Part shown: piece after piece, positions 28,156 to 44,889 of the stretch | Numbering within the stretch: position 1 is the stretch's first letter | How the letters are laid out: the number at the start of each line of letters is the position of its first letter | DNA from: Desulfobacterales bacterium | Lineage (GTDB): Bacteria; Desulfobacterota; Desulfobacteria; Desulfobacterales; UBA5852 | Assembly (NCBI GenBank): GCA_963674755.2 | Contig: CAXXVS010000002.1 | Coordinates: 320,001 to 384,000 of the forward strand | Reading direction: 5' to 3' | Length of the DNA: 64,000 nucleotides | Translations under genes and position numbers: made by a program | The notes under the pieces: generated by a model | Database searches by the model: none | The model's input: the letters and a program-made list of their open reading frames with translations, nothing else | Told to the model about the DNA's origin: nothing

Positions 28156-29399
28156 TCAGCGGGGAGAGGAATCCTCCCTCTTTTCTTGTCCCTCTTCGCG
28201 TTTCAGCTCTTCGATCAATTCCAACATCGTGGCTTCTTCCTGAATTTCATAGCTGGCGGGCCTGCCGCTATATGATGGGCGGTCCGCTACGGATACCGGC
28301 CATCCATCGGTATTCACAGCCGTTGGTTTAGTTTGGAGCAGGGACGACTGATAAGGGGTTTCGGACGTCTTCTCAGGGGATGGCCGGAAGGTCTCCTGGG
28401 GTGGGACGAAGCGGGTCTGCCGGGCAAGGAAATGGGTGTAATAGGCTTCCATCGTGAACATGCCCTCCCGGCTGCCGGTTTGCATGGCCGTTTCGATTTG
28501 GTTCAGGCGGTTGTCGCGCACCATGGTTTTGACCGCCGGCGTGCCGCGCAGAATGGACAGCAGGGGGACCCGGAAGCCGTGGGCGTCGAGGTGATCAGTT
28601 TTTGGATCAGCAACAGGGTAAGGCTCGATGCCAGCTGGTGGCGCACCAGGTCCTGCATGTCGGCGGGAAAGGAATTGCACAGCCGGTAGATGGCATCTTC
28701 GGAATTGGTGGCGTGGAGCGAGGCGATGACCAGGTGGCCGGCCTCCACCGCATTGACGGTCAGGCGAATGGTTTCCGGATCCCGCAGCTCGCCGACCACA
28801 ATCAGATCCGGCGCTTCCCGCAGTACATCCTGCAGGCCCTGGCTGTAGCTGGGGAAGTGCGTTCCCAGTTCCCGCTGTTCCACAAAGGATTTTTTGGACC
28901 GGTAGCGGTATTCCACGGGCGCTTCCAGGGTGATGATATGGAGGTTTTGTTTGCGGTTGATTTCTTCCACCATGGCCGCAATGGTCGTGGATTTACCGGC
29001 ACCGGCGGCGCCGCCCACCAGCAGCAGCCCGGTCTTGAGGCGGCAATCGTCGCTGAGCGAGGGATGCAGATTGAGTTTGGCCAGCTCCGGGGGGTGGCCG
29101 GGCAGGAGGCGCACCGCCAGACTGAGCCCCCGCAGGGTATTGAAAATATTGACCCGAATACGCACCTGGCCGATGCTGCGGGCAATGTCCACCGAGAATT
29201 GCTGGCGGAGAACGTCCAGCTCCCGCGGGCTCAGCAGCCGCTGAACCAGCTGATCCAGCTCACGGTGTTCCCACAGCAGGTTTTTGTCAAATTGCAGACT
29301 CCCGTTGCGGCGGAAAACCAGCGGATGTCCTCCGGTCAGATGAATGTCGGAGTAGCCTTCGTCAACCCCCTGTCGAATAATTTTACCGAATCGTTCCAT
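28156..29399 (-). pseudogene. pilT: PilT/PilU-family retraction ATPase, split by a 1-nt frameshift near 28590-28603
   Basis: Frame 1: SDIHL, GAAGAGKST, QRELG, LREAPD..VGELRD, GHLVIASLH. Homology continues in another frame (GFRVPLLSILRGTPAVKTMVRDNRLNQI..MQTG..EGM). The span is 1244 nt, one short of a multiple of 3. Could be a sequencing error. Confidence 0.75.
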
Positions 29400-29451
29400 G
29401 GCGTGGTTTTTTCCTTGTGGGGTCAGCGGGTATTGCCCGTGGCCGCGCGCC

Positions 29452-31287
29452 TCATCGCAGCAGCGGGTCCTGTCCTTTGAGCCGGACAGCGAAGTCGTCG
29501 AAATAGACAGTGGACGCATCCGCCGGTCCCAAGCCCATGGCGTGCAGGCCCAACTCGGACGGCCAGTCGTTGGCATCGGCAGGGTACCCTTCGGTCGTGA
29601 AGGCATCGGTCAGGATAACGGCTTCCGATTCCCATTCGGCCGCCCGTCCGGTTTTTTCGATCCGGAATCCCATGACCGGGGAGGGGGAACTGGTTACGAA
29701 GGTCCAGTCAATTTGGAAAACGCTGCCGCCCAACAGACTGAAATTGTCGTTCGTGGCGCGGAAGTCGGTGCGGTCAAAGACCGGCCAGTTGATAAACGAG
29801 CTCAAGGGGGCCAGACGCGGATTCGGCCCCCGTCGGTTGTCCAGCATGAAGTCCGGCGCAGCGCCGCTGCGGCTGCCCCCGCCGTTGCAAAGGTAAGGCG
29901 TTGCAACGAAGACCTTGATGGCATTGACCCGTTCGCCGGCGCTGAAGGCGCCACCGGCTTCGGACGGGCGCGCGGCCCGCTCGTCCAGGCGTACCAGGAG
30001 GGTCAACCAAGGTTGAAAATATTCCGTATTGCCCTGCAGCAGGCAATAGTCGAGGGGCAGTTCGGCGTAGGCCAGGACTTCCCGTTCCTCCGGCCACAGG
30101 GTCAGGGTCGGACCGGAAGGGGGAATCCGATATTGCCACAAGGAGGTTATCAGACCGTCGCCGTTTGTGTCCCGCTGGGTCCAGAGGATGATATAGGGGG
30201 TGACGGCGTCCTCCACCGGAACCAGCTGATCCGGCAGAGTGGTGCCGTGCCGCCCCCGGACAATCGACACCCCCAGCAGATTGCCGCCATTGGCCGGGGT
30301 GTCATCCAGACGGAGAGAAAGCCCGCTCAGGTAGTCGGTGGCGTTGGGGATGACCGCCGTCTTCACCTGGAGGTCGTAACTCAGACTGTGCAGGTCGTGG
30401 GGGATTCCGTCGTACACGGTAGCGTTCCAGTAGTCGAAAAAGGGGATCGCACTCCCCCCGTTGGCGGTCCGCCAGTCGAAAGCCCCGAAGACGCGGGGCT
30501 GGGACAATTCGAGGGGCAGTGTCACGGTGTCGTCGGTCACGCCGGCGCCGATCAGGATAGTCCGGGCATCCTCCAGGGCGACTACCACCGCAGACCAGTA
30601 GCGGACATAAAAATCGTTTCTGAACCATTCCAACGAGAAGGGATCGGCATCGTTGCGCCGGCTTGTATAATCATCGCGGATGGCGGCGGCATCGTCGATG
30701 GCGGTTTGAAGGGAAACCGCACGGCCGTCCCCGGGCAATGATAAGGATTCGCCCACCGTACCCAGGGCGGCGTTGCCGTCGACCGTGGCGGTTGCAAGAC
30801 TTCCGGGGGAGAGGACGTCGGGACGCCAGTTGCCCGTATCCTCCATGGTATCGACCCAGTCCGGAGTTCCACCAGACCCGCGTGCCACCAGCCTGTAGCG
30901 GGTTTCGCCGAATGGTCCGGAGACGATGCCGGTGGAGGTCAAACGCTCCGGGAGGCCTTCCACGTCCAGTACGAAGCGATCGCCGTTGGCGAGACGATAG
31001 GTTTGCGGCAAATCCGGCTTGACCGCCTGGGCGTCGTAATAGGTTAGCCCGGAATAGGCCAGATAGTAGGCCTTCTGCTGACTGGCGGCGGTGAGGAAGC
31101 CATGGCTGGAGGAGGCGGTCATGTAGACCATGGCCGCACCGAGAACGGCCATGACGGTCAGGGTCAGGATCAGGCTGATCAGCAGCGCGCCGCGGTTGTT
31201 GTCGAGCCGGGACAGGCGACAACCCGGCGGATTGCCGATCCGGCTTTTCCAAGGAGACATCACGGTATCGAGGTGGTGGTCAGTCAT
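29452..31287 (-). CDS. Large PilX/GspK-like pilin with extended C-terminal domain (putative tip adhesin)
   Basis: RGALLISLILTLTVMAVLGAAM prepilin-like helix lacking Glu5, then AYYLAYSG; internal DTNGDG; ends YFDDFAVRL. ATG at 31287 overlaps the upstream stop. Confidence 0.75.
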   Translation of the reverse strand: MTDHHLDTVMSPWKSRIGNPPGCRLSRLDNNRGALLISLILTLTVMAVLGAAMVYMTASSSHGFLTAASQQKAYYLAYSGLTYYDAQAVKPDLPQTYRLANGDRFVLDVEGLPERLTSTGIVSGPFGETRYRLVARGSGGTPDWVDTMEDTGNWRPDVLSPGSLATATVDGNAALGTVGESLSLPGDGRAVSLQTAIDDAAAIRDDYTSRRNDADPFSLEWFRNDFYVRYWSAVVVALEDARTILIGAGVTDDTVTLPLELSQPRVFGAFDWRTANGGSAIPFFDYWNATVYDGIPHDLHSLSYDLQVKTAVIPNATDYLSGLSLRLDDTPANGGNLLGVSIVRGRHGTTLPDQLVPVEDAVTPYIILWTQRDTNGDGLITSLWQYRIPPSGPTLTLWPEEREVLAYAELPLDYCLLQGNTEYFQPWLTLLVRLDERAARPSEAGGAFSAGERVNAIKVFVATPYLCNGGGSRSGAAPDFMLDNRRGPNPRLAPLSSFINWPVFDRTDFRATNDNFSLLGGSVFQIDWTFVTSSPSPVMGFRIEKTGRAAEWESEAVILTDAFTTEGYPADANDWPSELGLHAMGLGPADASTVYFDDFAVRLKGQDPLLR

Positions 31288-31882
31288 GCTTCCCCAGGAA
31301 AATCGTGGAGGACAATTGATCATACTGGGTCCCCTGGACCTGCAGATGCACGCGCAACGCCGCCTGACGAGCCGGGTCGGCGAAGGCCGCCGCCCATTCC
31401 GGTGTGCGTGAGGCTGCCACAACCAGATGGCCGCCGGTGTCATAATAAAGGTAGTCGATCGCAAAGGCGGTGACCTCGTCCACGAGGGGTTCCGTCTGGA
31501 TACCCCCGGCGCAGTCATGGCAGCTCAGCAGGAGATCGTCCCCGGCAGTGCCATTCCAGGAAATCGAAAAAGAGCGGATGGTGTCAAAGGCCTCATCGGC
31601 ATGAAAGCTGTCGAAGCGGATGGAGAGGCCACTGCCCGCCGACACATCCGTGATATTGTTGAATTCCTTTTCCATGCGCGCCATGGCCAGCTGGGTTTTC
31701 TGTGCCATTTCGGCCGCGGTGCGCGACAAGGCGAACCCCTCCGTGATCTGGACCAGGCCGATGCCGGCAATGGCCGCCAGAATCGCCACAATGGCCAGGC
31801 TGGCGATCATTTCGATCAGGGTAAAACCGTCCTGCCGTCCCTGGGGCCGGGAGTACGCATCGGCCTGCTTAAAAGGTCTCAT
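31280..31882 (-). CDS. Minor pilin (PilW/MshO-like)
   Basis: G|FTLIEMIASLAIVAILAAIAG type III signal; ARMEKE. Confidence 0.85.
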   Translation of the reverse strand: MRPFKQADAYSRPQGRQDGFTLIEMIASLAIVAILAAIAGIGLVQITEGFALSRTAAEMAQKTQLAMARMEKEFNNITDVSAGSGLSIRFDSFHADEAFDTIRSFSISWNGTAGDDLLLSCHDCAGGIQTEPLVDEVTAFAIDYLYYDTGGHLVVAASRTPEWAAAFADPARQAALRVHLQVQGTQYDQLSSTIFLGKHD

Positions 31883-31899
31883 GGTGGCCGTTGCCTCCC

Positions 31900-32340
31900 T
31901 TAGCGTATCAGCAGGAAGGTCAGCGTGTCATCACCCGTCCCGGCGATGATCACTTTGAGGATGTTGTCCGGCGGCGTCCCATAAACGTCTGAGGCTTCGT
32001 TGCCGGCGGCGTCGAATTGAATGAAGTCGTTGAAAAGCACGCGATAGTCTCCATAGCCGTTGCTTTGGGTCGTGCCCGCCGAGCCGATGGTGTTCTGAAA
32101 ATCACTCCAGGTGCCGCTGTCGGAGGGGGCGGTCTGGCGAAAGGCGCCGATCATACTGTCTGCCACCGTTTGCAGGGCGGTCTCAGACGCCAGGCGCTTC
32201 ATGGGCGTGCTGCTGTGCGTGACAGCACTGCCCAGGTATTGCATCATGATGCTGCCCAGAATAAGGGCCACCAGCAAGGTGATGATGACCTCCACCAAGG
32301 TGAAACCGTTGCGGTTCGTGGTGTCATGGGGGGCCGTCAT
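31900..32340 (-). CDS. Minor pilin (PilV/MshD-like)
   Basis: G|FTLVEVIITLLVALILG. Confidence 0.85.
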   Translation of the reverse strand: MTAPHDTTNRNGFTLVEVIITLLVALILGSIMMQYLGSAVTHSSTPMKRLASETALQTVADSMIGAFRQTAPSDSGTWSDFQNTIGSAGTTQSNGYGDYRVLFNDFIQFDAAGNEASDVYGTPPDNILKVIIAGTGDDTLTFLLIR

Positions 32341-32801
32341 GGGATAAATCCCGTCAATCGTGTAACGATGATGGATTCGGTACCGATCGTGATGGTGACG
32401 TTATCCGGGCCCGGGCTTCCCCACTCATCAAACAAAACGGTGCCGATGCCTCCCGTGATGGTTACAGTGCTTGGCAGATTGTGGGTGGAGGAAGTGTCGT
32501 TGGGCAGCGGGATGCCGGCCGGTGAACCATTCAGCAAAAGCGTATAGGAATGGGGTGTGAAGGTGATCCCCCAGCGCTCTGTATTGTTGCCCATGGCCAA
32601 CGACTGGGCAAATCGCAGGTGCGAACGGACGATGGCCGCCTGGGCGTAAGCATTCCGTTCGATCGAAGGGGTTCGGGTGAGAATCTCGGTCATGATGACA
32701 GCCAATACCAAAAGAACGGCCAGGATCTCAATCATGGTGAAGCCATCGGGACAACCAGCTACGGCTGTTCGTTCAGCTGCGCTCGGGGATGTCTTGTGCA
32801 T
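32337..32801 (-). CDS. Minor pilin (FimT/MshC-like)
   Basis: G|FTMIEILAVLLVLAVI; SHLRFAQSLAM; FDEWGSP; C-terminal TGFI. Confidence 0.85.
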   Translation of the reverse strand: MHKTSPSAAERTAVAGCPDGFTMIEILAVLLVLAVIMTEILTRTPSIERNAYAQAAIVRSHLRFAQSLAMGNNTERWGITFTPHSYTLLLNGSPAGIPLPNDTSSTHNLPSTVTITGGIGTVLFDEWGSPGPDNVTITIGTESIIVTRLTGFIP

Positions 32802-33014
32802 CCGGTTTTCGCCTACGTCGTGAATCAATGGGAATCCCAATGGCGGCCTCGGGGGTAATGGACTTGATGCCATACCAGCTGTCATAGCGATATATGGATC
32901 CTATCATTGATGTACTGACTTTTCCAGACATGCGTGGCAGAACGGAAGACGGATTTGCGATCCGAGGCGTCGCGCAATTTCCATAGGGGGATGAGAACCA
33001 GCTGAGGTTCAGGC

Positions 33015-33392
33015 TTAGCGTGACCAACGCCCGGCCGACAGGGATGTGGAAGGGGTCCTGGTCAGCGCGGCTGTGGCGGATCCAAACCGAAGCGTCCCCC
33101 CGCCTGCTGTGGGGGCGGTGGGCCATTGGTAGCCCGAACCCAGGTCGACGTCCATCCGGCTGAAAGTGGCGGCATCGTTCGGCCAGCCCCCGTTCGACAG
33201 CACGAGGTTGGCCCACACAAGGCTTTCGCGCTGGTTCAGTTCAGCCACGCCGAGATCGAGGGAGCGTTGGTCGGCGCTGGCGGCGACATCGATAAAACGG
33301 GGTACGGCCACGGCCGCCAGGATACCCAAAATGACCAGAACGGCGATAATTTCAATCAAGGTAAAGCCCCTCGGGTTACCCAAGGGGCGCAT
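33015..33392 (-). CDS. MshA-like pilin, paralogue 2
   Basis: G|FTLIEIIAVLVILGILAAVAVPRFID; colinear with the upstream pilin; start uncertain. Confidence 0.88.
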   Translation of the reverse strand: MRPLGNPRGFTLIEIIAVLVILGILAAVAVPRFIDVAASADQRSLDLGVAELNQRESLVWANLVLSNGGWPNDAATFSRMDVDLGSGYQWPTAPTAGGGTLRFGSATAALTRTPSTSLSAGRWSR

Positions 33393-33528: not shown

Positions 33529-33930
33529 CTATTGTCGCTGCCAACGGCCGGGAGACGTGCTGGTGGAGGCCGTGCGATCCAATACGGCGGTGGCGTTGGT
33601 GTTGTTGTCGTAGACCAGAGTTCCCCCCGTTGCAGTCGGTGCGCCGCCACTCCATGAATAGGGATCGCCCAGATCATAAATCTCCGTGCCGAAAACATCC
33701 GTATCAGCTGCCCATCCGCTGCTGGACAATTTAACATCTGCCCAGCGCAGCGTCTCCCGACCGTTCAACTCGGCAATGCCGGCATCCAGGGCCCGCTGCT
33801 GGGCATTGTCGGTCAAATCGATATAACGCGGCACGGCCACCGCTGCCAGAATGCCCAGAATGATCAGCACCGCAATGATTTCAATCAGGGTAAAGCCGGA
33901 CTGGTCCGCTAGTATTGATCGCCGTTTCAT
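33529..33930 (-). CDS. MshA-like pilin, paralogue 1 (probable major pilin)
   Basis: G|FTLIEIIAVLIILGILAAVAVPRYID; GGAGG RBS before ATG 33930 (alternative ATG 33945); first gene after the sigma-54 promoter. Confidence 0.9.
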   Translation of the reverse strand: MKRRSILADQSGFTLIEIIAVLIILGILAAVAVPRYIDLTDNAQQRALDAGIAELNGRETLRWADVKLSSSGWAADTDVFGTEIYDLGDPYSWSGGAPTATGGTLVYDNNTNATAVLDRTASTSTSPGRWQRQ

Positions 33931-34056
33931 GGTGTTGGCCTCCATGCCATCTCCTTGGAGTTGACTCCGTTATGGATGAATCTTCTCATTCCGCCATCCG
34001 TTCCCTATGCCGTCGGCAACTCCGCAGGTATGGCGCCTCAATCAGTGGCGAGTTAG

Positions 34057-34072
34057 AGCAAAATGTATACCG
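34057..34072 (-). promoter_or_regulatory. Sigma-54 (-24/-12) promoter for the pilin genes
   Basis: Minus strand reads CGGTATACATTTTGCT, i.e. GG-N10-GC with TTTGCT at -12; AT-rich tract upstream (~34120-34157); a bEBP gene is adjacent. Confidence 0.7.
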
Positions 34073-34205
34073 TCCGCGGTCATCCCGATGCAAAAATTGC
34101 GAAAGTTGCCGTTTGATCTGCTTAATATTTGAAATAATACCTCATTTTAAGTTATTTGGGCAGCGTGAATCAAGGCCGAACCTCCAAATATTGTAGCGGG
34201 ATCCA

Positions 34206-35546
34206 TCACCTTTTGTTGGGTTTAAGGGCCGTCACATCGATCTGGTACTTCTTGATGCGATGCCACAGGCTGCGTTGATTAATCCCCAGATCTTCGGCGG
34301 CTCTGACCTGGACGCCCTGGGTATGTTTTAGGGCGTCGATGATCAAGCTTTTTTCAATTTCCTTTAGTTTGTCATCGAGGGACAGGGGCGCGTCGTTCTG
34401 CCGATCCACCATAGGCGTGTGAGCGAATACCCGCGCCATGTTGTCCGGCAGATGGGCGACGTCGATATTCTGCCCCTGGCTGAGGACGGCCGCCCGCTCG
34501 ACCGTGTTCTGGAGTTCGCGGACATTGCCAGGCCAGGCGTAGCCGATCAGGCGCTGCAGGGCTTCGGAAGAAATACGGACCTCAGGTACAGTTTGTGCCA
34601 GAAAGTCGTCCACCAGCAGGGGGATGTCCTCCTTGCGTTCGCGCAAGGGGGGCAGCTGCAGCGCAAAGACATTGATACGGTAATAGAGATCCTCCCGGAA
34701 ACGGCCCTCGGCGACCATCTCGGCCAGATCCTGGTTGGTGGCGCAGATGATGCGGACATCCACCTGGACCGTCCGGGTACCCCCCACCCGGTCGAACTCT
34801 TTCTCCTGGAGGACCCGCAGGATTTTGGCCTGCAGTGCCAGGGGCATGTCTCCGATTTCATCGAGAAAGACGGTACCGCCATTGGCCAGTTCGAATTTGC
34901 CTGATTTGCGGGCCGTGGCGCCGGTAAAGGCCCCTTTCTCATGGCCGAACAACTCGCTTTCCAACAGGTCGGGGGGAATGGCGACGCAATTGAGCTTGAT
35001 GAAGGGGGCTTGTTTGCGCCGGCTGTTGCGATGGATGCTGGAGGCCACCAGCTCTTTGCCGGTGCCGCTTTCGCCGAGAATGAGCACCGTGGAATCCGTG
35101 GGCGCCACCATCTGGATCCGGCGCAGGAGTCCCCGCATGACACGGCTGTCGCCGATGATCTCGGGGAAGAGCTGGCGCGCATCCAGTTTGGTCAATACGT
35201 CTTCGACCCGCTCGAACACATTTTTAAAGTGTTTGATCTCATCCACTTGTTTGCGGCGGTATTGTTCGTCTTCCGGGCGCGATATCACCGGGATGTCATT
35301 GGCGCGTCGCACAAACTGTTTTACCGGCAGGAGCAGGAGGCGTGTCACCACAAGTCCGCAGAAAAAACTGGCCAGGGCAAAGAGCAGGGCCCACAAGTGC
35401 ACCTGCAAGCTGCCGTCCTGGCCCATGCGGTAATAGTGTTGGGCCACCACGAAGGTCAGCAGGGCCGACAAAAAGGCGATGCCGGCAAAAATGGCCGGGA
35501 CAATGACATACAGACTGATGTGATAGCGAATATCTTTGATGGCCAC
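34206..35546 (-). CDS. Membrane-anchored sigma-54 enhancer-binding protein (2 TM, HAMP-like, AAA+, Fis-type HTH)
   Basis: Two hydrophobic segments at the N-terminus and no receiver domain; GESGTGKE, ESELFGHEKGAFTGA, FLDEIG, FREDLYYR, WPGNVREL; C-terminal HTH. Confidence 0.92.
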   Translation of the reverse strand: MAIKDIRYHISLYVIVPAIFAGIAFLSALLTFVVAQHYYRMGQDGSLQVHLWALLFALASFFCGLVVTRLLLLPVKQFVRRANDIPVISRPEDEQYRRKQVDEIKHFKNVFERVEDVLTKLDARQLFPEIIGDSRVMRGLLRRIQMVAPTDSTVLILGESGTGKELVASSIHRNSRRKQAPFIKLNCVAIPPDLLESELFGHEKGAFTGATARKSGKFELANGGTVFLDEIGDMPLALQAKILRVLQEKEFDRVGGTRTVQVDVRIICATNQDLAEMVAEGRFREDLYYRINVFALQLPPLRERKEDIPLLVDDFLAQTVPEVRISSEALQRLIGYAWPGNVRELQNTVERAAVLSQGQNIDVAHLPDNMARVFAHTPMVDRQNDAPLSLDDKLKEIEKSLIIDALKHTQGVQVRAAEDLGINQRSLWHRIKKYQIDVTALKPNKR

Positions 35547-35564
35547 GATGATCTCATTTCCGGT

Positions 35565-36785
35565 TTAATGATACATTTTCGTGAGATCCGCAATCGGCAG
35601 AAAAATGGCCACGGCAAAGAAGCCCACCATGACCGCCAGCGAGATGATCAGAATCGGACCGATGGCGTTGGTCATTTTTTTGATGGCATATTCCAGTTCC
35701 TCGTCATAATGCGCGGCGACTTCCTCCATCATCTCTTCCAGATTGCCGGATTCTTCGCCCACCGCCACCATGTTGACCACCATGGGGGTGAAATAGCGGG
35801 CCTTGCGAAGGGGAGCCGCGATGCCGCGTCCTTCTTCGAGCATTTCCCGGATGCGGTCGAATTCCCGGGAGATGGCCGCATTGCCGATGGTATCGGACAG
35901 GATGGTCATGGATTCCAGGATGGCGATCCCGCTGGACTGCAGGATGCTGAAAATCGATGAAAACCGCGACATGGCCGATTTGACCACCACCGGCCCGATG
36001 ATCGGCGTTTTGATCAGCAGATAGTCCCGTATATACCGTCCTTGAGCGGTGCGCAGATAAGCGTAGCCGGCCACCAAGGCCAGCAAAAAAGCAGCGATCA
36101 GAAGGCCGCCATAGATGGTTAAAAACTGATACAATTGCATGGCAATCTGGGTCGGCAGGGGAAGGGCCACCCCGCTCCTGGAGAGGATGGTGACAAATTT
36201 GGGCAAGACGACGCCCAGGAGAATGAAAAAGGCCACCACCAGCATCCCCAGCACGAAGACCGGATAAAACATGGCGGAGCGGATATCGGAGCGCACTTTC
36301 TGTTCGTGCGCCAGAATATATTTCAGTCGCTCCATGACTTGGGGCAGGGAGCCGCTGACTTCGCCGGCATGGATCATGGCGCAGTAGAGCGGCGAGAAGA
36401 CCGCCGCGTGCTGCCGGAAAGCGTCGTAGAGCCGGGCGCCTTCCTTGATGCTTTGCCGCATGGCGGCAATCACTTTCTCCAACCGCGGATTTTCCGTTTG
36501 CGCGATGAGGATGTCCAGCATGACCATCATCGGTACCCCGGCCCGGAAGAGCGTGCTGAACTGCTTGGTGAACAAAATCAGATCCGCGGTCGGGATATGG
36601 TTGAACCAGTGCTGCAGCGCGGGCAGCCGCGGACCCTGCCAGCCGTGGCTGCGTTCCTGCACACGGGAGGGCAAAAAACCGCGTCCGTTGAGCAGCTCGG
36701 CGGCCGCCTCGGCGGATTCGGCCTCCACAAAGCCTCTGAGGGTTTCCCCCTTTTCGTTGATGGCTTGATAGGCGTAAGTCGGCAT
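35565..36785 (-). CDS. pilC: Type IV pilus inner-membrane platform protein (PilC/GspF/MshG)
   Basis: FTKQFSTLFRAGVP, AGEVSGSL, SAMFYP, VGEESGNL, FLPI. Confidence 0.92.
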   Translation of the reverse strand: MPTYAYQAINEKGETLRGFVEAESAEAAAELLNGRGFLPSRVQERSHGWQGPRLPALQHWFNHIPTADLILFTKQFSTLFRAGVPMMVMLDILIAQTENPRLEKVIAAMRQSIKEGARLYDAFRQHAAVFSPLYCAMIHAGEVSGSLPQVMERLKYILAHEQKVRSDIRSAMFYPVFVLGMLVVAFFILLGVVLPKFVTILSRSGVALPLPTQIAMQLYQFLTIYGGLLIAAFLLALVAGYAYLRTAQGRYIRDYLLIKTPIIGPVVVKSAMSRFSSIFSILQSSGIAILESMTILSDTIGNAAISREFDRIREMLEEGRGIAAPLRKARYFTPMVVNMVAVGEESGNLEEMMEEVAAHYDEELEYAIKKMTNAIGPILIISLAVMVGFFAVAIFLPIADLTKMYH

Positions 36786-36793: not shown

Positions 36794-38503
36794 CTAAACC
36801 ATCACGGCCGAGGCCGCCTCTTCCATTGTGGTGATTCCGCGTACCACCTTTTCAAAGGCATCTTCCCTGAGAAGCCGCAGGTGACCGGCTTGGTGGGCGT
36901 GGCGCGTGATGTCGTGGGAGGCGCTGCTTTTGACGATCATATCCCGGATGATGTCATCGATTAAAAGGATTTCGTAAATGCCGATGCGTCCCCGGTAGCC
37001 GGTATCCTGGCAGTGAAAGCAGCCCCGCCCCTTAACGAAGCGGGCATCCTCGGGCGGGTTCAAACCCCAGAAGGCAAGCGCCTCCGCCGAGGGGCGCACG
37101 GGTTCGCTGCAATTGGGGCAGACCCGTCGCACCAGCCGCTGGGCAAATGAGACGAGCATCACCGAGGCTACCAGAAACGGTTCGATGCCCATATCCACGA
37201 AACGGGTGATGGCGCCGGCCGCATCGTTGGTGTGGACCGTGCTCAGGACCCGGTGGCCGGTAAGCGCCGCCTGCACGGCGATGTTGGCCGTCTCGCGGTC
37301 GCGAATCTCACCCACCATGATGACATCGGGGTCCTGGCGCAAAATGGAGCGCAACCCGCTGGCAAAGGTCATCCCGGCCTTGCGGTTCAATTGGACCTGG
37401 CGGATTTTTTCAATGCGGTATTCCACCGGATCTTCGACTGTCAGAATGTTGATGTCCGGCTGGTTGATCTTTTTCAGAATGGAATAGAGACTGGTACTCT
37501 TGCCGCTTCCGGTGGGGCCGGTGCTGAGAATCATACCGTAGGGTTTGAAGATGACCGCCTCGATCTTGCGGCGATCCTCGTCCGCCATCCCCAGGGTTTC
37601 CAGAGTGTGGATGCCGGAACTGGTGTCCAGCAGACGCAGTACCAGATTTTCGCCATAGATCGTGGGGATGGTCGACGCCCGGATGTTGATTTCCTTGTTG
37701 TTCAGCTTGACGGTAAAACGGCCGTCCTGGGGAACCCGGGAGGTGGCGATATCCATATTGGCCAGAATCTTTAAGCGGGAGATGATGTGCAGCAGCATGG
37801 ACTTCGGGGGGGCGGGCACATTGTGCAATTTGCCGTCCACCCGGAAACGGACCTGGACCGAATCCTTCTCGGGACTGATGTGGACATCACTGGCCCCCTC
37901 GCGCACGGCCTGGGACAGAATCGAGTTGACCAGCCGGACCACGGGCGCCTCTTCAGCCATATCCTGCAGGGAGCTGACCTCCACATCTTCCATGGAGATG
38001 GCGGTCTCGGAGGTGGCCTCCGTGTCGTACTGCATTTCCTCCATGTCCTCCAGCACATCACCGATGACGGTGTAAGTGCCATAGAGGCTGCTCATGATCT
38101 GATTGAGTTCCTGCTCGGTGCAGATAATGGCTTCGGCTTCCATCCCGGTGGCGTCTTCGAGGACATCCAGGGCTTCGATGTCGAGGGGATCCGTCATGGC
38201 AATCGTGAGCAGGCGGTTTTCGCGTCGGATGGGCACCATCTGGTGCTTCTGGGCGGTTTCCGCCGGAAAGGTGCCGGCCAGGGTGATATCGATGGGATAG
38301 CGCGCAGCGTCGTACTTGGCGATGCGCAGCTGGCGAGAAATCAGATCGACGATCTGGGACTCGCTGACCACACCTTCCCGGATCAGGTACTGCCCGAGGC
38401 GCAGTTTGCTTTTGCTTTGGTTGAGAACGGCCTGGTTCAGCTGGAATTCGGTCATCAGGCCTGCTTCCACCAGCATTGAGCCGAGTTTTTTTCTGTCGCG
38501 CAC
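36794..38503 (-). CDS. pilB: Type IV pilus extension ATPase (PilB/MshE) with MshEN N-terminus
   Basis: ASDVH, PQDGRF, TGPTGSGKSTS, EDPVEY, LRQDPD, GH...HTN, CPNC..CFHC zinc site, GYRGR. Confidence 0.93.
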   Translation of the reverse strand: MRDRKKLGSMLVEAGLMTEFQLNQAVLNQSKSKLRLGQYLIREGVVSESQIVDLISRQLRIAKYDAARYPIDITLAGTFPAETAQKHQMVPIRRENRLLTIAMTDPLDIEALDVLEDATGMEAEAIICTEQELNQIMSSLYGTYTVIGDVLEDMEEMQYDTEATSETAISMEDVEVSSLQDMAEEAPVVRLVNSILSQAVREGASDVHISPEKDSVQVRFRVDGKLHNVPAPPKSMLLHIISRLKILANMDIATSRVPQDGRFTVKLNNKEINIRASTIPTIYGENLVLRLLDTSSGIHTLETLGMADEDRRKIEAVIFKPYGMILSTGPTGSGKSTSLYSILKKINQPDINILTVEDPVEYRIEKIRQVQLNRKAGMTFASGLRSILRQDPDVIMVGEIRDRETANIAVQAALTGHRVLSTVHTNDAAGAITRFVDMGIEPFLVASVMLVSFAQRLVRRVCPNCSEPVRPSAEALAFWGLNPPEDARFVKGRGCFHCQDTGYRGRIGIYEILLIDDIIRDMIVKSSASHDITRHAHQAGHLRLLREDAFEKVVRGITTMEEAASAVMV

Positions 38504-38523: not shown

Positions 38524-40194
38524 TCAAGAAGGGGATGCGGTGATGTCGCTCACCGTCCGGAAAGGATCGTTGAAAAATACCGCATCGTCATGCCATAGCG
38601 ACCGCACGGCGGCCCCGGTCCGATCGGCGGCGGGAAGCATCTGCGCAAGGGTGTTTTCAGCCACCTGGCGGTCATAGAAACAGCCCGGCCGGATCAACGC
38701 AAATACCAACCCCTGGTCCTGATGCCAGTAGGGGATCAGGCGTGCCGCAAGCCCTGCCCGCCGCTTTTGTTTTAATGCCGCGACGGCCTGGTCGAGCCGG
38801 GGGTAGGCCCCCAGCTGGATCCACCATACCGGCACCTGCAGAGGGCGCACGGCGGCCGGCAAGGCCGGAAAATGAATGACGTCGCCGACATTCAGCCGAT
38901 CCGGGTCCGGAATGTGGGGATTGGCCGCGGCGATGACATCCAGATAGCCGGGCGTGAAGCGCCCGTAAATGATTTGAATGAGTTGGCCCAGGGTTTCCCG
39001 GGGGGCAATGGTTAGTCTTCCCAACCGGGCCGGTAAGGCCTGTCCAAGGGGTGCGCTGGCGGCTGATTCAGGTTCGGAGGGCGGCCTTTGGGAAGCTAAG
39101 GCCGGTGCGGGGCCGACCTGGAGGGCCTCCGTCATCCGGAGGCTGGCGGCGGGTGACGGCGGCGACGAGAGTTCGGCCGTTTGGGACCGGCGAGTCGTCA
39201 GGGGGACCGCCTCTGGCGTGACCGGGGTGCCGGACGGTGCCCTCACAGCGTTTGTCCCGGTTTTCAGGCCGTCAAGGGATCGCGCAATCCATGTCCGGGG
39301 GGCCACAGACAGGAGGACGATCAACGCCGCGGCGCCGGCCACAGCTCCCCAGCGCCAGTGCGTAGGCGATGGGTGGGGGCGTGTCCGGCGGGCGCAGGTG
39401 CGCACGAGCTGCCAATTGGCCCGCCGCCGGTTCTGGATGATCAGCGCCAAGAGGACCCGGTGGCAGAGATGAATAATCCGGCGGGGATAGCCGCGGGTTG
39501 CCATAAAAATGGCCGCCAGGGCGGGTAACGTGAACAGACGTCTGGCAGAACCGCCGCCGGAGGCCTGAATCCTGAAATGAATCAGGGACAGGGTATCCTG
39601 AAAGCCCAGGGGGTGGAGATCGAGGCACACGTTGATGCGGTCGGCAAAATTGGGGTGGTCGGCAAGGGTACGCTCGAATTCGCGCTGGGCGAAGATGACG
39701 ATTTGAAGCAGCTTGTAGGCATTTGTCTCGTAGTTGAGGAATTCTCGCAGGACTTCGAGACAGGGCGGGGTGATCTTTTGTCCTTCATCGATGATCAGGA
39801 CGGTGGTGCAGCCCTCTGCCACGCCCTTCTCAAAGAGGAATTGTTTGATGGTCTCTTTTTTCTGGTGGTCGGTCCGGTCGGCAGGGGGCATCCGGCCCGA
39901 GAACTGTTCCACCACCGACGATAGAAAACGGCCGACTGAATCGGCACCCGGATCGAGCAGCAGAAAGGTGGCGATGCCACTTTCTCCATTGAACTTTCGG
40001 ATCAATTCCCTGCAAAGCGTGGTTTTGCCGGTGCCCACGTGGCCGATCACGACATTGAGTCCCCGGCGCAGGCGGATGGCCAGCTCCAATTGCTGAAGGC
40101 AGCCCGTGTGCTGAACGGACCGGTAGAAAAAATCGGGATCCGGTGAATTGGAAAACGGCTCCCGTTCAAGATCCAGTATGTCGAAATAGTCCAT
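38524..40194 (-). CDS. ExeA/MshM-type AAA ATPase with TM, LysM-like and SPOR-like domains
   Basis: EPFSNSPDPDFF, GHVGTGKTT, IIDEGQ, GYPRRI..LC; TM segment; ANPHIPDPDRLNVGDVIHFP (LysM-like); WWIQLGAY (SPOR-like). Confidence 0.85.
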   Translation of the reverse strand: MDYFDILDLEREPFSNSPDPDFFYRSVQHTGCLQQLELAIRLRRGLNVVIGHVGTGKTTLCRELIRKFNGESGIATFLLLDPGADSVGRFLSSVVEQFSGRMPPADRTDHQKKETIKQFLFEKGVAEGCTTVLIIDEGQKITPPCLEVLREFLNYETNAYKLLQIVIFAQREFERTLADHPNFADRINVCLDLHPLGFQDTLSLIHFRIQASGGGSARRLFTLPALAAIFMATRGYPRRIIHLCHRVLLALIIQNRRRANWQLVRTCARRTRPHPSPTHWRWGAVAGAAALIVLLSVAPRTWIARSLDGLKTGTNAVRAPSGTPVTPEAVPLTTRRSQTAELSSPPSPAASLRMTEALQVGPAPALASQRPPSEPESAASAPLGQALPARLGRLTIAPRETLGQLIQIIYGRFTPGYLDVIAAANPHIPDPDRLNVGDVIHFPALPAAVRPLQVPVWWIQLGAYPRLDQAVAALKQKRRAGLAARLIPYWHQDQGLVFALIRPGCFYDRQVAENTLAQMLPAADRTGAAVRSLWHDDAVFFNDPFRTVSDITASPS

Positions 40195-41858
40195 CAGGGG
40201 GCTTCTTTGCCAATGGCGTCACCGTCATCGGACGGTGACGTTTGGGTTGCCATTTTCTGGGTACCCGCAGGTTGCGGAAGGGCGGCCAGGGGCGGTTCCC
40301 GTTCTTTCAATACATGGGGGGTGACGAAAATAAGCAGTTCATCCAACCCGTTGTTCTTGTTGTTGCCTTTGAAGAGGCGCCCCAAGCCGGGCACGTCCTT
40401 GAGATAGGGCACACCGTATTCGTCCTGGGAGGTCAACTCCTTGCTGAGGCCGCCGATGACCGTGGTCTGGCCGTTGAAAAGAATCACGCCGGTCTGGGCC
40501 CGTTTGGTGATGATGAGCGGGTTGTTGCCCACCGCATTGGTAAAATCCACATCGTCCTTGGTGACGAAGATGTCCATCTTGACGGTTTCGTTGTCGATGA
40601 CGTGGGGCGTGACCTCCAGCCGCAGCACGGCCTTTTTGTATTCAATTTTGACCTCGTCGTCTTCCACGCTTTGGTAGGGGACGTCCTGACCGCTTTCGAT
40701 AAAGGCTTCCTGATTGTCCAGGGTCGTGATGTTGGGGCTGGAGAGGATGTTGACCTGTCCTTCGTCTTCCAGAGCCTGCAATTGAATGCTGAGAATATTG
40801 CCGGAGCCGCTTTCGAGAACGAACCCGAGATCCAGTCCCAGCAGATTGCCGGCGACGTCCGTGGCGGTCAGGCCGGCCGGGAAATTGCCCATGGTCCCCG
40901 AGGTGGGATTAACCGATTCGCCGCTGCCCGGCGTCACGCCGCTGCCGGCCGGATTGGCGATGCTCCCGGCGGTGTTGTAGTAACGGTAGCCGTTGATGGA
41001 GGTTCCGTAGAGTCCGCCCCACTGAACGCCGAGTTTGCGGGCCGCGTCCTTGGTGGCTTCAACGATATGGGCTTCGATCAGTACCTGGGGCGTGGGCCGG
41101 TCCAGGGCCTCGACCAGAGGCAGCATGCGTTCCAGATCCGAGCGAACGGCCTGGATGATGAGGGAGTTGGTGTGGCGATCCACCAGCACGGATCCGAGCA
41201 GCGTATTCTCGTCCAGGCGCGTGAGAAATTTTTCCAGGTTTTCCCGCAATCCATCTGCGTCGGCGTATTCGATTTCCACGACCTGGGTCAGGAGGGGCTC
41301 TGCCAGGCGCAGCTCACGCTCCTTGGCTTTGATGCGCTGGCGGGTTTCCAGTTGTTCGAGCTCCCGGTTTTTGTCCTCGAAGGTGATGACCCGGATGATG
41401 TCGCCTTCCCAGAGATAGGTCAGCCCATGGGTGCGCAGGATTCCCAAAAAGGCCTGATCCCAGGGAACCGCTGTCAGGCTGACATCGATGCGTCCCCGTA
41501 CCTGATCGTTGATCATGATGTTCTGGTCCACGGACCGGGCCAGGGCGCGCAGGACCGCCGGCACCTCGGCGCCATGCATGGTGAGCGAGATGACTTGCTT
41601 GCTGAGGCGGGCGTCCTGGGCGGCGGCTTGGGTGGCCTCCCCGGGCGATTTTCCATTCGAAGGGGGTGCGGCGAGCGTGCGTTTGACCGGTGAAGGCGAA
41701 TGCCCCCTGGAATCGGCGGCCTTGGTTTTCCATTCCGCAAAAAACTTATCCCGCGGCGCCTTGATGTCCTTTTCAGCGCATCCCGCAGCTAACAGCAACA
41801 GGGCCAGAGTGCCTACGAATGCCATACGGAATGCATGGTTGGGTTTTTGGTGTTCCAT
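40194..41858 (-). CDS. pilQ: Outer-membrane secretin (PilQ type, lipoprotein)
   Basis: LLLAAGC lipobox; VPWDQA, DRHTNSLII, QVLIEAHIVE, LGVQWG, LSSP.ITTLDN, GVPYLKDVPGLGRLF, ELLIFVTP. Confidence 0.92.
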   Translation of the reverse strand: MEHQKPNHAFRMAFVGTLALLLLAAGCAEKDIKAPRDKFFAEWKTKAADSRGHSPSPVKRTLAAPPSNGKSPGEATQAAAQDARLSKQVISLTMHGAEVPAVLRALARSVDQNIMINDQVRGRIDVSLTAVPWDQAFLGILRTHGLTYLWEGDIIRVITFEDKNRELEQLETRQRIKAKERELRLAEPLLTQVVEIEYADADGLRENLEKFLTRLDENTLLGSVLVDRHTNSLIIQAVRSDLERMLPLVEALDRPTPQVLIEAHIVEATKDAARKLGVQWGGLYGTSINGYRYYNTAGSIANPAGSGVTPGSGESVNPTSGTMGNFPAGLTATDVAGNLLGLDLGFVLESGSGNILSIQLQALEDEGQVNILSSPNITTLDNQEAFIESGQDVPYQSVEDDEVKIEYKKAVLRLEVTPHVIDNETVKMDIFVTKDDVDFTNAVGNNPLIITKRAQTGVILFNGQTTVIGGLSKELTSQDEYGVPYLKDVPGLGRLFKGNNKNNGLDELLIFVTPHVLKEREPPLAALPQPAGTQKMATQTSPSDDGDAIGKEAP

Positions 41859-41878: not shown

Positions 41879-42397
41879 TCAGGGGTTAGGGGCCGGATCT
41901 CCCCCGTTGTCCACCAGTGGAACGGACACCATCCGCTGTTGCGGCGAGACCAGTACAACCTGGGCGGGGGCAATGTGCTGGACCTTGTAAGTGCTCTGGT
42001 CCAACTGGTCGCCCACCACATATTCAATCCCGTTGATGATGGCGACTCGACGCTGGGGGGTCTCGATATAGCCCGAGTAGATCAGCGACACGTTGGCAGG
42101 GAGCACCTGCGCGGCGTCCGATGTTGCGGCCATTGCCGACAGCAGGCCGGGGCCTTCCACAAAAAGATTCTTCCGCCAGGGGGACTGCGCCATGGACAGC
42201 GTATAGCGATTTTCCTCCAGCGAAGATGGACTGTCGAACTGGGCGGTCACCCGGGTAATCATCTGCGTCAAGGGCTTGGGCTGGCCCAGGGCCGTCTTGG
42301 ATGTTTTTTTCTGTTGCCCATCTGAGATCAACAGCAGCCCGCCCAGGCACAAGGCGACGATCATAAGCCCGACGAGAATTTTTTCACGGGTCGACAT
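41879..42397 (-). CDS. Pilus alignment protein (PilP/MshK/GspB-like)
   Basis: MSTREKIL plus a TM segment; YSGYI..AIING.EY.VGD; located between PilO and the secretin. Confidence 0.65.
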   Translation of the reverse strand: MSTREKILVGLMIVALCLGGLLLISDGQQKKTSKTALGQPKPLTQMITRVTAQFDSPSSLEENRYTLSMAQSPWRKNLFVEGPGLLSAMAATSDAAQVLPANVSLIYSGYIETPQRRVAIINGIEYVVGDQLDQSTYKVQHIAPAQVVLVSPQQRMVSVPLVDNGGDPAPNP

Positions 42398-42451
42398 GCG
42401 ATCCTCCCGGGGGGCCGCCACCGGCCGTTGCCCGGCCGAGCAGGCCGGGCA

Positions 42452-43012
42452 TTATTGTCGTGACAGCCATAAATCCAGCTCCATGTGAAGACCCGGCAGA
42501 CTGGTTTCCCGGCGCACCTCGATGCGTTCGATATGCGCCAGGTAGGGCAACTCACCCAGTTTCAGCATGAATCCTCTCAAATTGCCGAAAGCGCCCTGCA
42601 ACTCCAAGGCGAGTTTGAGCTCGCCGGTTTCATTGATCATCGAGTTGAGGTCGGCGCCGATTTGTCGCACTGTGAGGTGGTTTTGTTCGGCCAGCTGGCG
42701 AAAAAGAGGTTCGATGCCGGCCATCTGATCGGGTTCCAGTCGTTCGGGGTGCGGCAGGGGCAGATCCCCCAGCTCGGACGGCTGCGTGTCCCCCAGTATT
42801 TCGGTGAAGCGTTTATAAATCGGTTCGAGGAGTTTCTGATCGTCGATCTGACGCTGAAGGCGATCGACCTGGAGGGTCAACTGGTCTGACGCCTGCTGCT
42901 GGGGCCAGATACTCAGCAGGTAAACACCCAGGAGGCCACCCATGCAGACGGCCGCGAAAAATAGACGGCGTTCGGGGAACAGGGCCAGGAAAGCGTCGCG
43001 TTGCAGCCTCAT
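42452..43012 (-). CDS. PilO/MshJ-like alignment protein
   Basis: Single TM, coiled coil, LELQGAFGNLRGFMLKLGELPYL..I ferredoxin-like tail. Confidence 0.75.
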   Translation of the reverse strand: MRLQRDAFLALFPERRLFFAAVCMGGLLGVYLLSIWPQQQASDQLTLQVDRLQRQIDDQKLLEPIYKRFTEILGDTQPSELGDLPLPHPERLEPDQMAGIEPLFRQLAEQNHLTVRQIGADLNSMINETGELKLALELQGAFGNLRGFMLKLGELPYLAHIERIEVRRETSLPGLHMELDLWLSRQ

Positions 43013-44889
43013 CAGATCACCTCCAATTCGGCCGTGAAACGCAATACTTCCTGGCCGTCCAGCATTTCGAAGGACTTGTCGATGATCCGGGGGTCGGAAA
43101 AGAGCGGTGACGTTTTCATCCGGACCATATAGGCCGCCAGAGCCGGTTCGAGTTCGAGTCGTTCGCCCTGAATAACGCCCCCGATCAACAGCATCCGCCG
43201 GGAGGCCTGATCATCGCCCTCCCCCTGGCGGGGCAGCCGGATGGTCATCCGGGACATGACGACTTCCTCCGGTGTCAGCCGCGACACTTCAGCGATAACC
43301 GCAATTCCGCGGTATTTCTCCGTATAGTCGTTGAGGCGCGAGTTGGCCTCCTTGGCCTTGGCGGCCAGGACTAGCACGGTTTCGGGTTTGAGCAGGGGAA
43401 CGAAGGCCTCCAATTCCTTTTGGAGGCGGCTAATTTGCTGTTGCCGGGACAGGAGGTTGTGTTTCTGCCAGCCGTTGTATCCCAAGGCAGCAAGCATGAT
43501 CAGCAGAAAGAGGCCGAAGACAACGCTGTTAAAGACTTGGTGTTTTTCGCGCTGGGCGCGGTCATGGTGGGTTTGCAGAAAATTGGGCCAGCGGTTGTCA
43601 ACGGGTGACGCCAGACCGACAGCAGGGATGTAGGCGAGCTGTTCCGGTCGTGTTTCAGGGCGCGGGGTCAGTGACGCGTCCTCAAACGGGTTCAGATCGA
43701 CGAGAGGGATGCCAAGCTGGTCGGCGAGATAATCGCGAACCCGGTCGTTTTCACAGATTTGTCCGGAGAGACAGAGCCGATCGATTTCACGGGGTTCGAA
43801 ATGAATGGCGTAGTGGCTGATGGTGCGCTCCACCTGTCGAACCAGCCGATCCAGAGCCGGACGGATCATGGCAAAGACATCGTCCGGTGTGATCGCGTCC
43901 TCGGGGAGATCGTCGGCAAGGTTGTCATCAGCGCCGGCCAGACCGGGAGCCAGTCGCGCCAAAAGATCCGCCGGCATCGGCCGCCGGGCATTGCGCTCCC
44001 GTTCCGCGCCCATCGGCGTTGGCCGAAAATCCATTTCAGGCACGCTTTGCGTCCGATGAGTCGCGGCGATGCGCGGGTCGGCGTTGATTTCATCCCGCAT
44101 GCCGTTCATTCCAGCGCGAATGCCGCGTGATAACAAGAGATTACCGTCGCTGAAAAAATCGATCCGCGACCAGTTGCGGCCGATATAGAGGGCACACAGG
44201 TTGCCCTGGCCAAGAATCTTCCAGCGGGTCCGCAGCAGATTCTGCAGCAGGAACGGGTAGGTGCTCACGCCGTCCAGCGGGTAGCCGGCGCGTGCAAAAG
44301 CCGTTTTGATGGTATCAATGTCTTCCCGTGGAATCGTGTAGGCGAGGACGTCCATTTGGGGAGGATCGAGGTCCGGTTTTTCTCCCAGCACTTCAAAATC
44401 GAATAGGCGCTGTTTGTCGTTGTAAGCGTTTTTCTTTTTGTAGGCCCATGTCACGGCATTGGGTATCTGACGCCGGGGGACCTTGGGAATGCGCAGCAGG
44501 CGTAGATCGAGACGCGCGGAGGAAGTCGTTGCCCAGATACTGGCATTTTCCGGGGATCCTGCAAAATAAGTCAAATGACTGCGCAAAAATTGTGGGAAAA
44601 GCAGACTGTTGGGATCCATATCCGATTCGAACGGGATGTGGCGGTAAGCGACGATCTGATGTCGATTGGGGCCGGACGGGACGGTTTTGATCAATCGCAG
44701 ATCATGGTAGCCGATATCGACCCCGATCATGGCGGACTTGCTGAAACTGAGGACGGAACGGAGACGTTGCCACCCGTTGGGGGAAGGTCCGAGGGGCTTC
44801 GCGGGCGGGAGCGATGCGGTTGAAGAGGGACGCTCTCCGCGAATTTGTGCCAGAAGTCTCTCGGTGGAAGAGATTTCGTCCTTGTTCAC
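43012..44889 (-). CDS. PilM-PilN fusion (MshI-like)
   Basis: IGVDIG actin-like start, LYIG..S.I, RQVERTI, LSG, AVGLA; then NFL, TM, coiled coil, SPLF..P (PilN-like). GTG start after GGAG. Confidence 0.8.
   Translation of the reverse strand: MNKDEISSTERLLAQIRGERPSSTASLPPAKPLGPSPNGWQRLRSVLSFSKSAMIGVDIGYHDLRLIKTVPSGPNRHQIVAYRHIPFESDMDPNSLLFPQFLRSHLTYFAGSPENASIWATTSSARLDLRLLRIPKVPRRQIPNAVTWAYKKKNAYNDKQRLFDFEVLGEKPDLDPPQMDVLAYTIPREDIDTIKTAFARAGYPLDGVSTYPFLLQNLLRTRWKILGQGNLCALYIGRNWSRIDFFSDGNLLLSRGIRAGMNGMRDEINADPRIAATHRTQSVPEMDFRPTPMGAERERNARRPMPADLLARLAPGLAGADDNLADDLPEDAITPDDVFAMIRPALDRLVRQVERTISHYAIHFEPREIDRLCLSGQICENDRVRDYLADQLGIPLVDLNPFEDASLTPRPETRPEQLAYIPAVGLASPVDNRWPNFLQTHHDRAQREKHQVFNSVVFGLFLLIMLAALGYNGWQKHNLLSRQQQISRLQKELEAFVPLLKPETVLVLAAKAKEANSRLNDYTEKYRGIAVIAEVSRLTPEEVVMSRMTIRLPRQGEGDDQASRRMLLIGGVIQGERLELEPALAAYMVRMKTSPLFSDPRIIDKSFEMLDGQEVLRFTAELEVI

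Follow-up and report, generated by a model that had tools for sequence, protein, structure and literature searches.

A probable membrane-anchored one-component sigma-54 activator with a predicted enhancer at the pilin promoter of a Desulfobacterales pilus cluster

How can a pilus cluster control the transcription of its pilin when it carries no sensor kinase? The question is raised by a stretch of 64,000 nucleotides from a Desulfobacterales genome (assembly GCA_963674755.2, contig CAXXVS010000002.1, positions 320,001 to 384,000; hereafter the window). A sigma-54 activator gene at 34206..35546 stands there between the platform gene pilC (35565..36785) and two prepilin genes (33529..33945 and 33015..33392). 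All genes, protein parts and the promoter described for the window lie on the minus strand; the palindromic enhancer sites are given without strand. The gene product is probably an integral-membrane one-component activator, predicted from its sequence to bind the palindrome CTACA-N5-TGTAG and to switch on the pilin promoter of the cluster, and its sensor likely reads the state of the pilus machinery within the inner membrane. A sequence-only reading of the window had placed an activator between pilC and the pilins and had suggested that it acts on the pilin promoter as a single component. The open reading frames confirm the placement. Architecture, synteny, the sigma-54 promoter, the HAMP-like linker and one-component action are supported from sequence, and the reading is strengthened by a predicted enhancer and by two-component twins.

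The activator and its predicted membrane sensor

The activator open reading frame starts with GTG. The pilC stop codon lies 18 nt before it, and the first pilin open reading frame lies 260 nt after it. The product of 446 residues consists of two hydrophobic helices, a HAMP-like segment, an AAA+ domain and a helix-turn-helix (HTH). Pfam assigns Sigma54_activat to residues 130-296 (E 6e-76), an AAA lid, and HTH_8 to residues 394-434. It gives no match to Response_reg (the receiver), to HisKA/HATPase or to 6TM_PilS, and residues 1-125 match no Pfam family. None of the NCBIfam activator models scores above its cut-off. The catalytic motifs are intact, with Walker A at residue 158, GAFTGA at 205, Walker B at 227, the R-finger region at 283 and sensor II at 338. 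The domains and motifs agree with the earlier description of an intact GAFTGA-bearing AAA+ domain and an HTH without a receiver. The AAA+ sigma-54 interaction domain and its lid occupy 34431..35159 (Pfam, motifs and model; GAFTGA at 34917-34934), and the AAA+ part of the model superposes on FleQ, FlrC and NtrC1 at about 1.5 Å. The Fis-type HTH (34245..34367, HTH_8) carries a family-specific recognition helix, QRSLWHR, at 34257-34277. AAA+ motifs, a C-terminal HTH and a predicted enhancer 80-200 bp from a -24/-12 promoter class the protein, by sequence, among the sigma-54 enhancer-binding proteins. The genome of 6.7 Mb contains rpoN (C2:314752-315228, about 5 kb before the window start and about 39 kb from the activator gene), and its gene products include 69 sigma-54 activator-like proteins as well as five homologues of PilC/GspF.

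Transmembrane (TM) segments were called by 19-residue Kyte-Doolittle hydropathy. Two peaks (2.41 and 2.27) lie at about residues 10-34 and 49-73, and no other peak in the protein exceeds 1.6. The polar loop between them has 14 residues, close to the 15 or so first noted. The same hydrophobic pair is found in 17 of 17 homologues examined and in the window protein. With a DNA-binding domain and at least one TM segment on a single polypeptide, the protein is on hydropathy likely a transmembrane transcription regulator. Predicted TM1 (residues 10-34, 35445..35519) contains in its N-terminal half the best-conserved part of the sensor, ISLYxIIPxIFxG. Across 36 dereplicated rows, L12 and P17 are invariant, and Y13, I15, I19 and G22 are kept at 97%. 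The loop (residues 35-48, 35403..35444) is short and variable, with a mean top-residue frequency of 0.42 as against 0.66 for TM1. Predicted TM2 (residues 49-73, 35328..35402) is called by hydropathy and is a helix in the AlphaFold model. No single conserved helical face is seen in the TM segments (moments 0.03-0.05). A short, variable loop next to a TM1 that is conserved above all other segments suggests a partner within the membrane and disfavours a ligand pocket outside.

TM2 leads into a degenerate HAMP at about residues 72-120 (35187..35333), identified by HHalign and AlphaFold as a helix, a variable connector and a helix entering the AAA+ domain. The columns after TM2 match a HAMP profile at 94.6% (E 6.8e-8, 47 columns), and 20 column shuffles reach at most 6.1%. 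The P at the start of HAMP and the DE of its DE-xx-L motif are aligned in this match. The HAMP-like segment of the sequence-only reading is in this way recovered, although it lies below Pfam detection. In homologous kinases, Pfam HAMP is above its cut-off in L207, L208 and L211 and below it in L199, L201 and L209. In the AlphaFold monomer residues 2-40, 46-84 and 102-126 are helical, and the link at 88-101 is of low confidence. A fold search with the sensor model (pLDDT 62.8, pTM 0.31) returned just generic helical hairpins (best Z 8.9), and a PDB sequence search by the sensor profile gave no match under E 0.2. In the ESM Atlas the top match (0.88) is a Thermodesulfobacteriota cluster, and a HAMP cluster at 0.82 is a lead only. 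The sensor domain has one copy in the source genome, and viral contigs gave a single weak partial match. Among close relatives it is 84-94% identical, equal to the level of the whole protein, and TM1 and HAMP positions hardly vary even between members that share just about 33% identity.

The genome encodes a second membrane-anchored one-component activator (C3:1863352-1865592; L039:5353-7593, minus strand), with two helices around an outside domain followed by HAMP-like, GAF-like, AAA+ and HTH parts. Membrane anchoring of sigma-54 activators as such is therefore not unique to the gene at 34206-35546.

Synteny, promoter and enhancer

Of 131 relatives detected in species genomes, the best 80 were kept for locus counts. 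The neighbourhood of pilC, activator and pilin is maintained in these homologues: pilC is directly upstream of the activator in 74 of the 80 loci, and a pilin follows within 700 nt in 65 of the 69 complete loci with enough sequence. G(A/S)F(T/S)GA is present in 74 of the 80, the remainder being four kinase fusions and two contig ends. Desulfobacterales dominate the record titles of these best 80 of 131, alongside some Desulfovibrionaceae and Olavius symbionts; Desulfosudis oleivorans, Desulfosarcina and Desulfatibacillum are among the carriers named in titles. The cluster order PilM/N, PilO, PilP, secretin, ExeA-like ATPase, PilB with a cyclic di-GMP (c-di-GMP) motif, PilC, activator and pilins is maintained across the order. 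Among 41 related genomes the sensor domain occurs in 18, exactly the 18 that have an orthologous PilC (49-100% identity), both being absent from the remaining 23. Of 301 genomes sampled from the phylum, 7 give strong sensor matches and 52 weak ones. In three loci (L032:9693-11110, L082 and L089) the activator gene is frameshifted, through assembly error or loss.

The predicted sigma-54 promoter, CGGTATACATTTTGCT (34057..34072), is a GG-N10-GC element of the -24/-12 type that is conserved in relatives. It lies 133 nt past the activator stop codon, where the sequence-only reading had put it at about 130 bp, and 24 of 25 held-out relatives keep a good site. The start site has a canonical spacing relative to such an element, by which transcription would begin near 34046. 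Between the activator gene and the promoter lies a predicted enhancer, or upstream activating sequence (UAS), CTACAATATTTGGAG (34182..34196). This CTACA-N5-TGTAG palindrome, for which the family consensus is CTACA-W5-TGTAG, stands 125 bp away from the GG of the promoter. A weak second site, enhancer-like with a score of 11.6, lies 22 bp further upstream at 34204..34218, where it overlaps the activator stop codon, and tandem sites about 21-22 bp apart are recurrent in relatives.

Sequence comparison indicates that CTACA-N5-TGTAG is likely the enhancer of the activator. The palindrome was first spotted in the gaps of 17 loci, just past the activator stop, and was tested on 25 held-out representatives (<75% identity; 27 representatives in all), of which 22 have it. 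After shuffling, on average 2.0 of the 27 representatives (maximum 5) had the promoter and 0.8 (maximum 3) the palindrome, and the opposite strand gave 0 of 27. Enhancer-promoter distances cluster near 112, 124, 135, 147, 156, 166 and 178 bp and show helical phasing, the best-fitting period being 10.5 bp (R 0.51, 30 sites; nominal p 4e-4, uncorrected for relatedness and for the 11 periods tried). By a weight matrix from relatives, 34182-34196 ranks first in the genome, and the enhancer-promoter pair at the pilin is the first of nine genome-wide pairs (32.3 versus 26.5 for the next). The pair scan found no second convincing target in the source genome that would point to a wider regulon. In 62 of 63 loci the palindrome score is 13.9 or more (two frameshifted loci excluded; the matrix was partly trained on these loci). 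An altered recognition helix is seen in the one exception among the 63 (STRSLGHR) and in the held-out L222, which has no such enhancer (ERRIWHL). The site also follows the pilin. In G041 and G042 the activator stays by pilC and the pilin is elsewhere; no palindrome follows the activator gene there, and tandem palindromes (spacings 125/146 and 136/157) and a promoter precede the pilin. No such phased site was found at 13 other pilin loci of the five genomes searched, and the extra pilin paralogues of L145 and L165 have no enhancer. That the palindrome is a terminator, or belongs to the activator gene, was considered and rejected, because it moves with the displaced pilin genes.

Two-component twins and the PilS/PilR pair

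In other members of the phylum the activator's sensor is found on kinases, in loci with the layout pilB, pilC, sensor kinase, receiver activator, palindrome, promoter and pilin. These twins total 17 loci, and their receiver activators have an ERS(I/M/L)W(Y/H)-type helix comparable to QRSLWHR. A pilin lies downstream in 13, the enhancer is present in 12 of these 13, and pilC is directly upstream in 12. The first 20 regions held 10 kinase-receiver pairs: seven with a pilin, all seven with the palindrome, one at a contig end and two with other genes. Twenty further regions from a wider profile held seven pairs (six with a pilin, five with the palindrome), six one-component loci and seven other contexts, two of the latter being kinase-receiver pairs with a different helix and no pilin. 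All six further one-component loci have pilC upstream; the palindrome is strong in three, replaced by three weak sites in one, absent from one and cut off by a contig end in one. The twin kinases contain HisKA and HATPase domains. The TM part alone matches them at 95.7% and 97.9%, and block-shuffled controls reach at most 14% and 4.6%, which identifies the TM parts of the one-component and kinase forms as homologous. On this comparison the activator is the one-component twin of an apparently undescribed two-helix two-component system and not a PilS derivative.

In quick trees the one-component clade, which has an SH-aLRT of 99, falls at moderate support among the receivers of the twins (81-93). 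Holding the receivers together is 2.9 log-likelihood units better (p-AU 0.58). Grouping with the PilR-like protein of this genome is absent from three quick trees, yet is not rejected (p-AU 0.30). The L206 protein, with the sensor, PAS, AAA+, another DNA-binding end and no palindrome, falls outside the one-component clade. A two-component pilus regulator may have collapsed into one membrane protein, and we place this slightly short of an even chance. The kinase and receiver parts would have been lost, HAMP would drive assembly of the AAA+ ring, and sensor, position and enhancer would be kept, the sensor reading either the pilin pool or the PilC/PilB platform in the membrane. If this is true, pilin control shed its phosphorelay more than once independently, the L206 protein being counted among the cases. 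An alignment of 48 pilins showed an invariant A-V in helix 1 (EIIAVL) at one-component loci, and ELIII, ELIIV or ELLVV at two-component loci. The difference is possibly a signal of sensor specificity, or mere ancestry.

The activator had been proposed as a PilS/PilR replacement, which does not hold for the organism, since its genome retains a 6TM PilS, a PilR-like regulator and a canonical pilA. The 6TM_PilS kinase gene is directly after a second pilC, and a receiver-type activator is directly upstream of the canonical pilA, which has its own sigma-54 site (C2:202906-205911 and C2:1217285-1219612, with pilC-pilS at one site and PilR-like-pilA at the other). The PilS of this genome has no room for a PAS domain. 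The label PilR-like rests on position and architecture; the NCBIfam PilR model gives no score on this protein. Its recognition helix is FRSFRHR, unlike QRSLWHR, and a weak palindrome copy (12.3) lies 197 bp before the canonical pilA promoter. Two regulators likely serve two pili in parallel, with PilS/PilR on the separate canonical pilA. Derivation of the sensor from PilS was rejected; HHalign against the PilS of this genome gave 0.3%, and the sensor has two hydrophobic peaks rather than six helices. A scan of open reading frames and Pfam found no kinase gene within the pilus cluster. The earlier remark that the locus lacks a sensor kinase is right for the cluster, and the PilS and PilR-like genes sit elsewhere in the genome.

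Other proteins carry the sensor as well. A profile search of 1.84 billion representatives gave 119 matches, including fusions of the sensor to kinases, to a GAFTGA-less AAA+ with a hybrid kinase, and to AAA+ with a full PilB. The last is a natural fusion of 955 residues (P0073, P0085 and L196:3234-6101) that joins the sensor, a sigma-54 AAA+ domain without HTH, MshEN and a PilB-type ATPase. The L196 fusion gene follows rpsA, outside any pilus cluster. In L047-L050 (for example L048:8004-10241), a hybrid of 742 residues with the sensor, AAA+ without GAFTGA, kinase and receiver is encoded after minor pilin and PilY-like genes. Five proteins (P0096, P0101, P0140, P0159 and P0163) combine the sensor and an intact RSLWHR helix with a degenerate GAFTGA region, and are possible repressors or anti-activators on the same enhancer.

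Signal, alternatives and the surrounding pilus

In the proposed mechanism both ends of the protein would be cytoplasmic, with the two helices inserted in the inner membrane, where the sensor would read the state of the pilus machinery. A HAMP dimer would relay a change in the TM helices directly to the AAA+ motor and control its oligomerisation, as it would relay to the kinase in the twins. From established sigma-54 biology, dimers on the tandem enhancers, DNA looping, an AAA+ ring and contact through GAFTGA would then lead to a start near 34046. In the pool-sensing version, a low membrane pool of the system's own pilin would raise pilin transcription. The identity of the signal is the least-supported step, and the pilin pool is favoured over the PilC/PilB platform and other cues. 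By analogy with PilS, the membrane pool of its own pilin is our tentative choice, at less than an even chance, because of the PilS precedent and because twins stay with the pilin without pilC. Contact with the PilC/PilB platform is somewhat less likely, and is considered because the gene stays with pilC and PilB fusions exist. Another membrane cue has the same lower likelihood as the platform.

Several points weigh against this account. The element CGGTATACATTTTGCT departs from the -24/-12 consensus, and the window contains 5 such matches versus 3.9 expected, so a single site is at chance level; the site is taken as real because it is conserved in relatives, not because of the single match. 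The relatives share ancestry, so conservation counts overstate significance. L074 has an altered helix, ARSLLHR, yet keeps a strong enhancer. No terminator was found between activator and pilin, and read-through could feed pilin mRNA. IHF-like sites are just modestly enriched (15 of 27 versus 7.75, maximum 11). The HAMP profile was seeded with three proteins first found by the sensor profile itself and was later widened with 30 genomic domains. Pfam HAMP is absent from the top 25 families of each of 70 one-component members, whose connector is long and variable. Four loci have no pilin downstream, and two of them (L064 and L065) also have no pilC. These two are intact orphan copies (L064:8004-9329 and L065:3798-5123) with neither gene nearby, and no pilin of this type was found in their genomes; the activator protein can persist away from the pilus. 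The sequence trees fix neither the origin nor the direction of a collapse into one protein.

The likeliest alternative keeps the same activator and enhancer and takes its input from the assembly platform. The helices would dock on PilC or on the PilB-PilC motor and signal whether the machine is assembled or at work, a checkpoint by which pilin would not be made before there is a machine. Broken clusters that keep the gene with pilC (L034, L086, L117 and L213) favour it, as do the natural fusions with a full MshEN-PilB ATPase, and an aligned start at most 5 nt from the pilC stop in roughly 26 of 74 loci suggests coupled translation. However, kinase or PAS versions in L206, L208, L211 and L229 precede the pilin without pilC directly upstream, and adjacency to pilC is expected anyway from shared operon transcription. 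We regard the platform input as possible, leaning to unlikely. The sensor could instead read some general cue from envelope or membrane (lipid, proton-motive force, surface contact, or c-di-GMP via a partner), with the pilin as the main target only. This would explain the orphans and the twins without a pilin (L064, L065, L198, L207 and L234) and would suit the c-di-GMP motif on PilB. It is the less likely of the two; against it, the pilin promoter is the best enhancer-promoter pair in the genome and the sensor strictly co-occurs with this pilus in the 41 genomes. The helices could also be a mere tether from a kinase ancestor, with a constitutive activator and a pilin output that follows upstream operon transcription. 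N-terminally truncated sigma-54 activators are frequently constitutive and the HAMP is degenerate, but a tether would drift, and the near-invariant TM1 and HAMP positions and the high sensor identity among close relatives make this improbable. It is very improbable that a genuine promoter is driven by a different activator, for instance the PilR-like protein, with the 34206-35546 protein acting elsewhere or as a repressor: this reading could draw on the 69 activator-like proteins, the five GAFTGA-less relatives with an intact HTH and the weak site before pilA, but GAFTGA is retained at nearly all loci, enhancer loss coincides with a changed recognition helix at two, and the PilR-like helix differs.

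A membrane-integral pilin activator can be compared with several known systems. PilS-PilR of deltaproteobacteria is encoded between pilC and pilA, the same position as the activator here. The pair (in Pseudomonas aeruginosa, and also in Geobacter and Myxococcus) likewise couples a membrane sensor without a large outside domain to a sigma-54 activator on the major pilin promoter. Here, one protein without kinase or receiver has two helices and HAMP instead of six helices, and it coexists with PilS and a PilR-like protein. PilS senses pilin within the membrane, and the elements quoted for PilR, TGT-N11-AGA/GTCT, differ from CTACA-N5-TGTAG (PMC6058289). ToxR, TcpP and CadC are also one-component membrane-integral DNA-binding regulators, and TcpP/ToxR control a pilus indirectly; their output differs from the AAA+ sigma-54 activator here, which needs oligomerisation and DNA looping. 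PspF-PspA and RedR2-BtdS are sigma-54 systems whose activity depends on the membrane, and PspF and RedR2 also bear on truncated or constitutive activators (PMC10084136). These two activators are soluble, and each is held by a distinct partner associated with the membrane, whereas here sensor and activator are joined in one chain through HAMP. The supplements of a census of transmembrane regulators contain no Sigma54_activat entry, and their 72 HTH_8 rows have no two-helix protein of this length, although such proteins may have been filtered out (PMC10269533). None of the 37 Desulfovibrio activators in a survey is described as membrane-integral in its text as available (PMC4641369). Further related literature is available (PMC5744179, PMC6060248 and PMC12194929).

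In open-licence papers and preprints nothing was found that describes the family, its enhancer or the kinase twin with two helices; older surveys of activator architecture may mention membrane-bound members. The comparisons point to a form of pilin regulation by membrane sensing that is real, conserved in relatives and apparently undescribed; it comes with a predicted enhancer and has a two-component counterpart in nature. One- and two-component forms with the same sensor and DNA target are a natural matched pair, in which one can ask what phosphorelay adds and whether HAMP gates AAA+ directly. For an unstudied pilus that, by record titles, occurs commonly among sediment sulfate reducers and Olavius symbionts, the analysis puts forward a regulator together with its enhancer and promoter. 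An intramembrane sensor of 125 residues on a strong activator would also give a simple reporter of the state of pilin or of a membrane machine.

The cluster has 16 co-directional genes from 28156 to 44910. MSHA clusters, with the Vibrio msh gene order as a reference, share its single-locus order of alignment genes, secretin, ExeA/MshM-like ATPase, c-di-GMP-binding ATPase, platform and pilins. None of the 16 genes matches a prepilin peptidase, which agrees with the single-locus part of the TFFscan definition of the MSH pilus (PMC6668835). That definition also has an MshL-type secretin, and here the secretin (40194..41858) scores below the cut-off of the MshL model (119.8, cut-off 250) and above that of the PilQ model TIGR02515 (340.6 bits, cut-off 284). 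Of the markers mshA, mshE, mshG and mshM, the MshEN c-di-GMP motif and an ExeA/MshM-like ATPase are seen by Pfam and NCBIfam. The regulator between platform and pilin is a further difference from MSHA; the order mshE-mshG-mshB-mshA-mshC reported for Pelobacter carbinolicus has none at that place (PMC3543383).

The prepilin gene at 33529..33945 likely encodes the major pilin and has a G/FTLIE cleavage motif, and the product of the second (33015..33392, start approximate) is 62% identical to it. Three minor prepilins with N_methyl or GFxxxE matches follow at 32337-32885, 31900-32340 and 31280-31882 (span 31280..32885). A large protein at 29452..31518 (start uncertain) matches no Pfam or NCBIfam family and is PilY1/MshQ-like by position only. 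On the other side, pilC is MshG-like with two T2SSF domains, and a pilB/MshE-like assembly ATPase with a c-di-GMP-binding motif lies at 36794..38503 (NF053729 53.7 bits, cut-off 38). The AAA ATPase at 38524..40194 (AAA_22; TIGR03015 below cut-off) is one that we take to be ExeA/MshM-like. The alignment-complex genes at 41879..44910, assigned by Pfam, NCBIfam and position, encode PilP/T2SSB-like, PilO-like (position only) and fused PilM-PilN-like proteins. One metatranscriptome has short contigs on the first pilin and pilC only, and these are uninformative on start, strand and level. A frameshift near 28592 interrupts the PilT-like ATPase gene (28156..29606) of this strain. The same letters stand at that place in contigs from one sample, which may be the source, and the contig of a close strain has one base more. 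In relatives the PilT-like frame is unbroken, at 410-427 residues.

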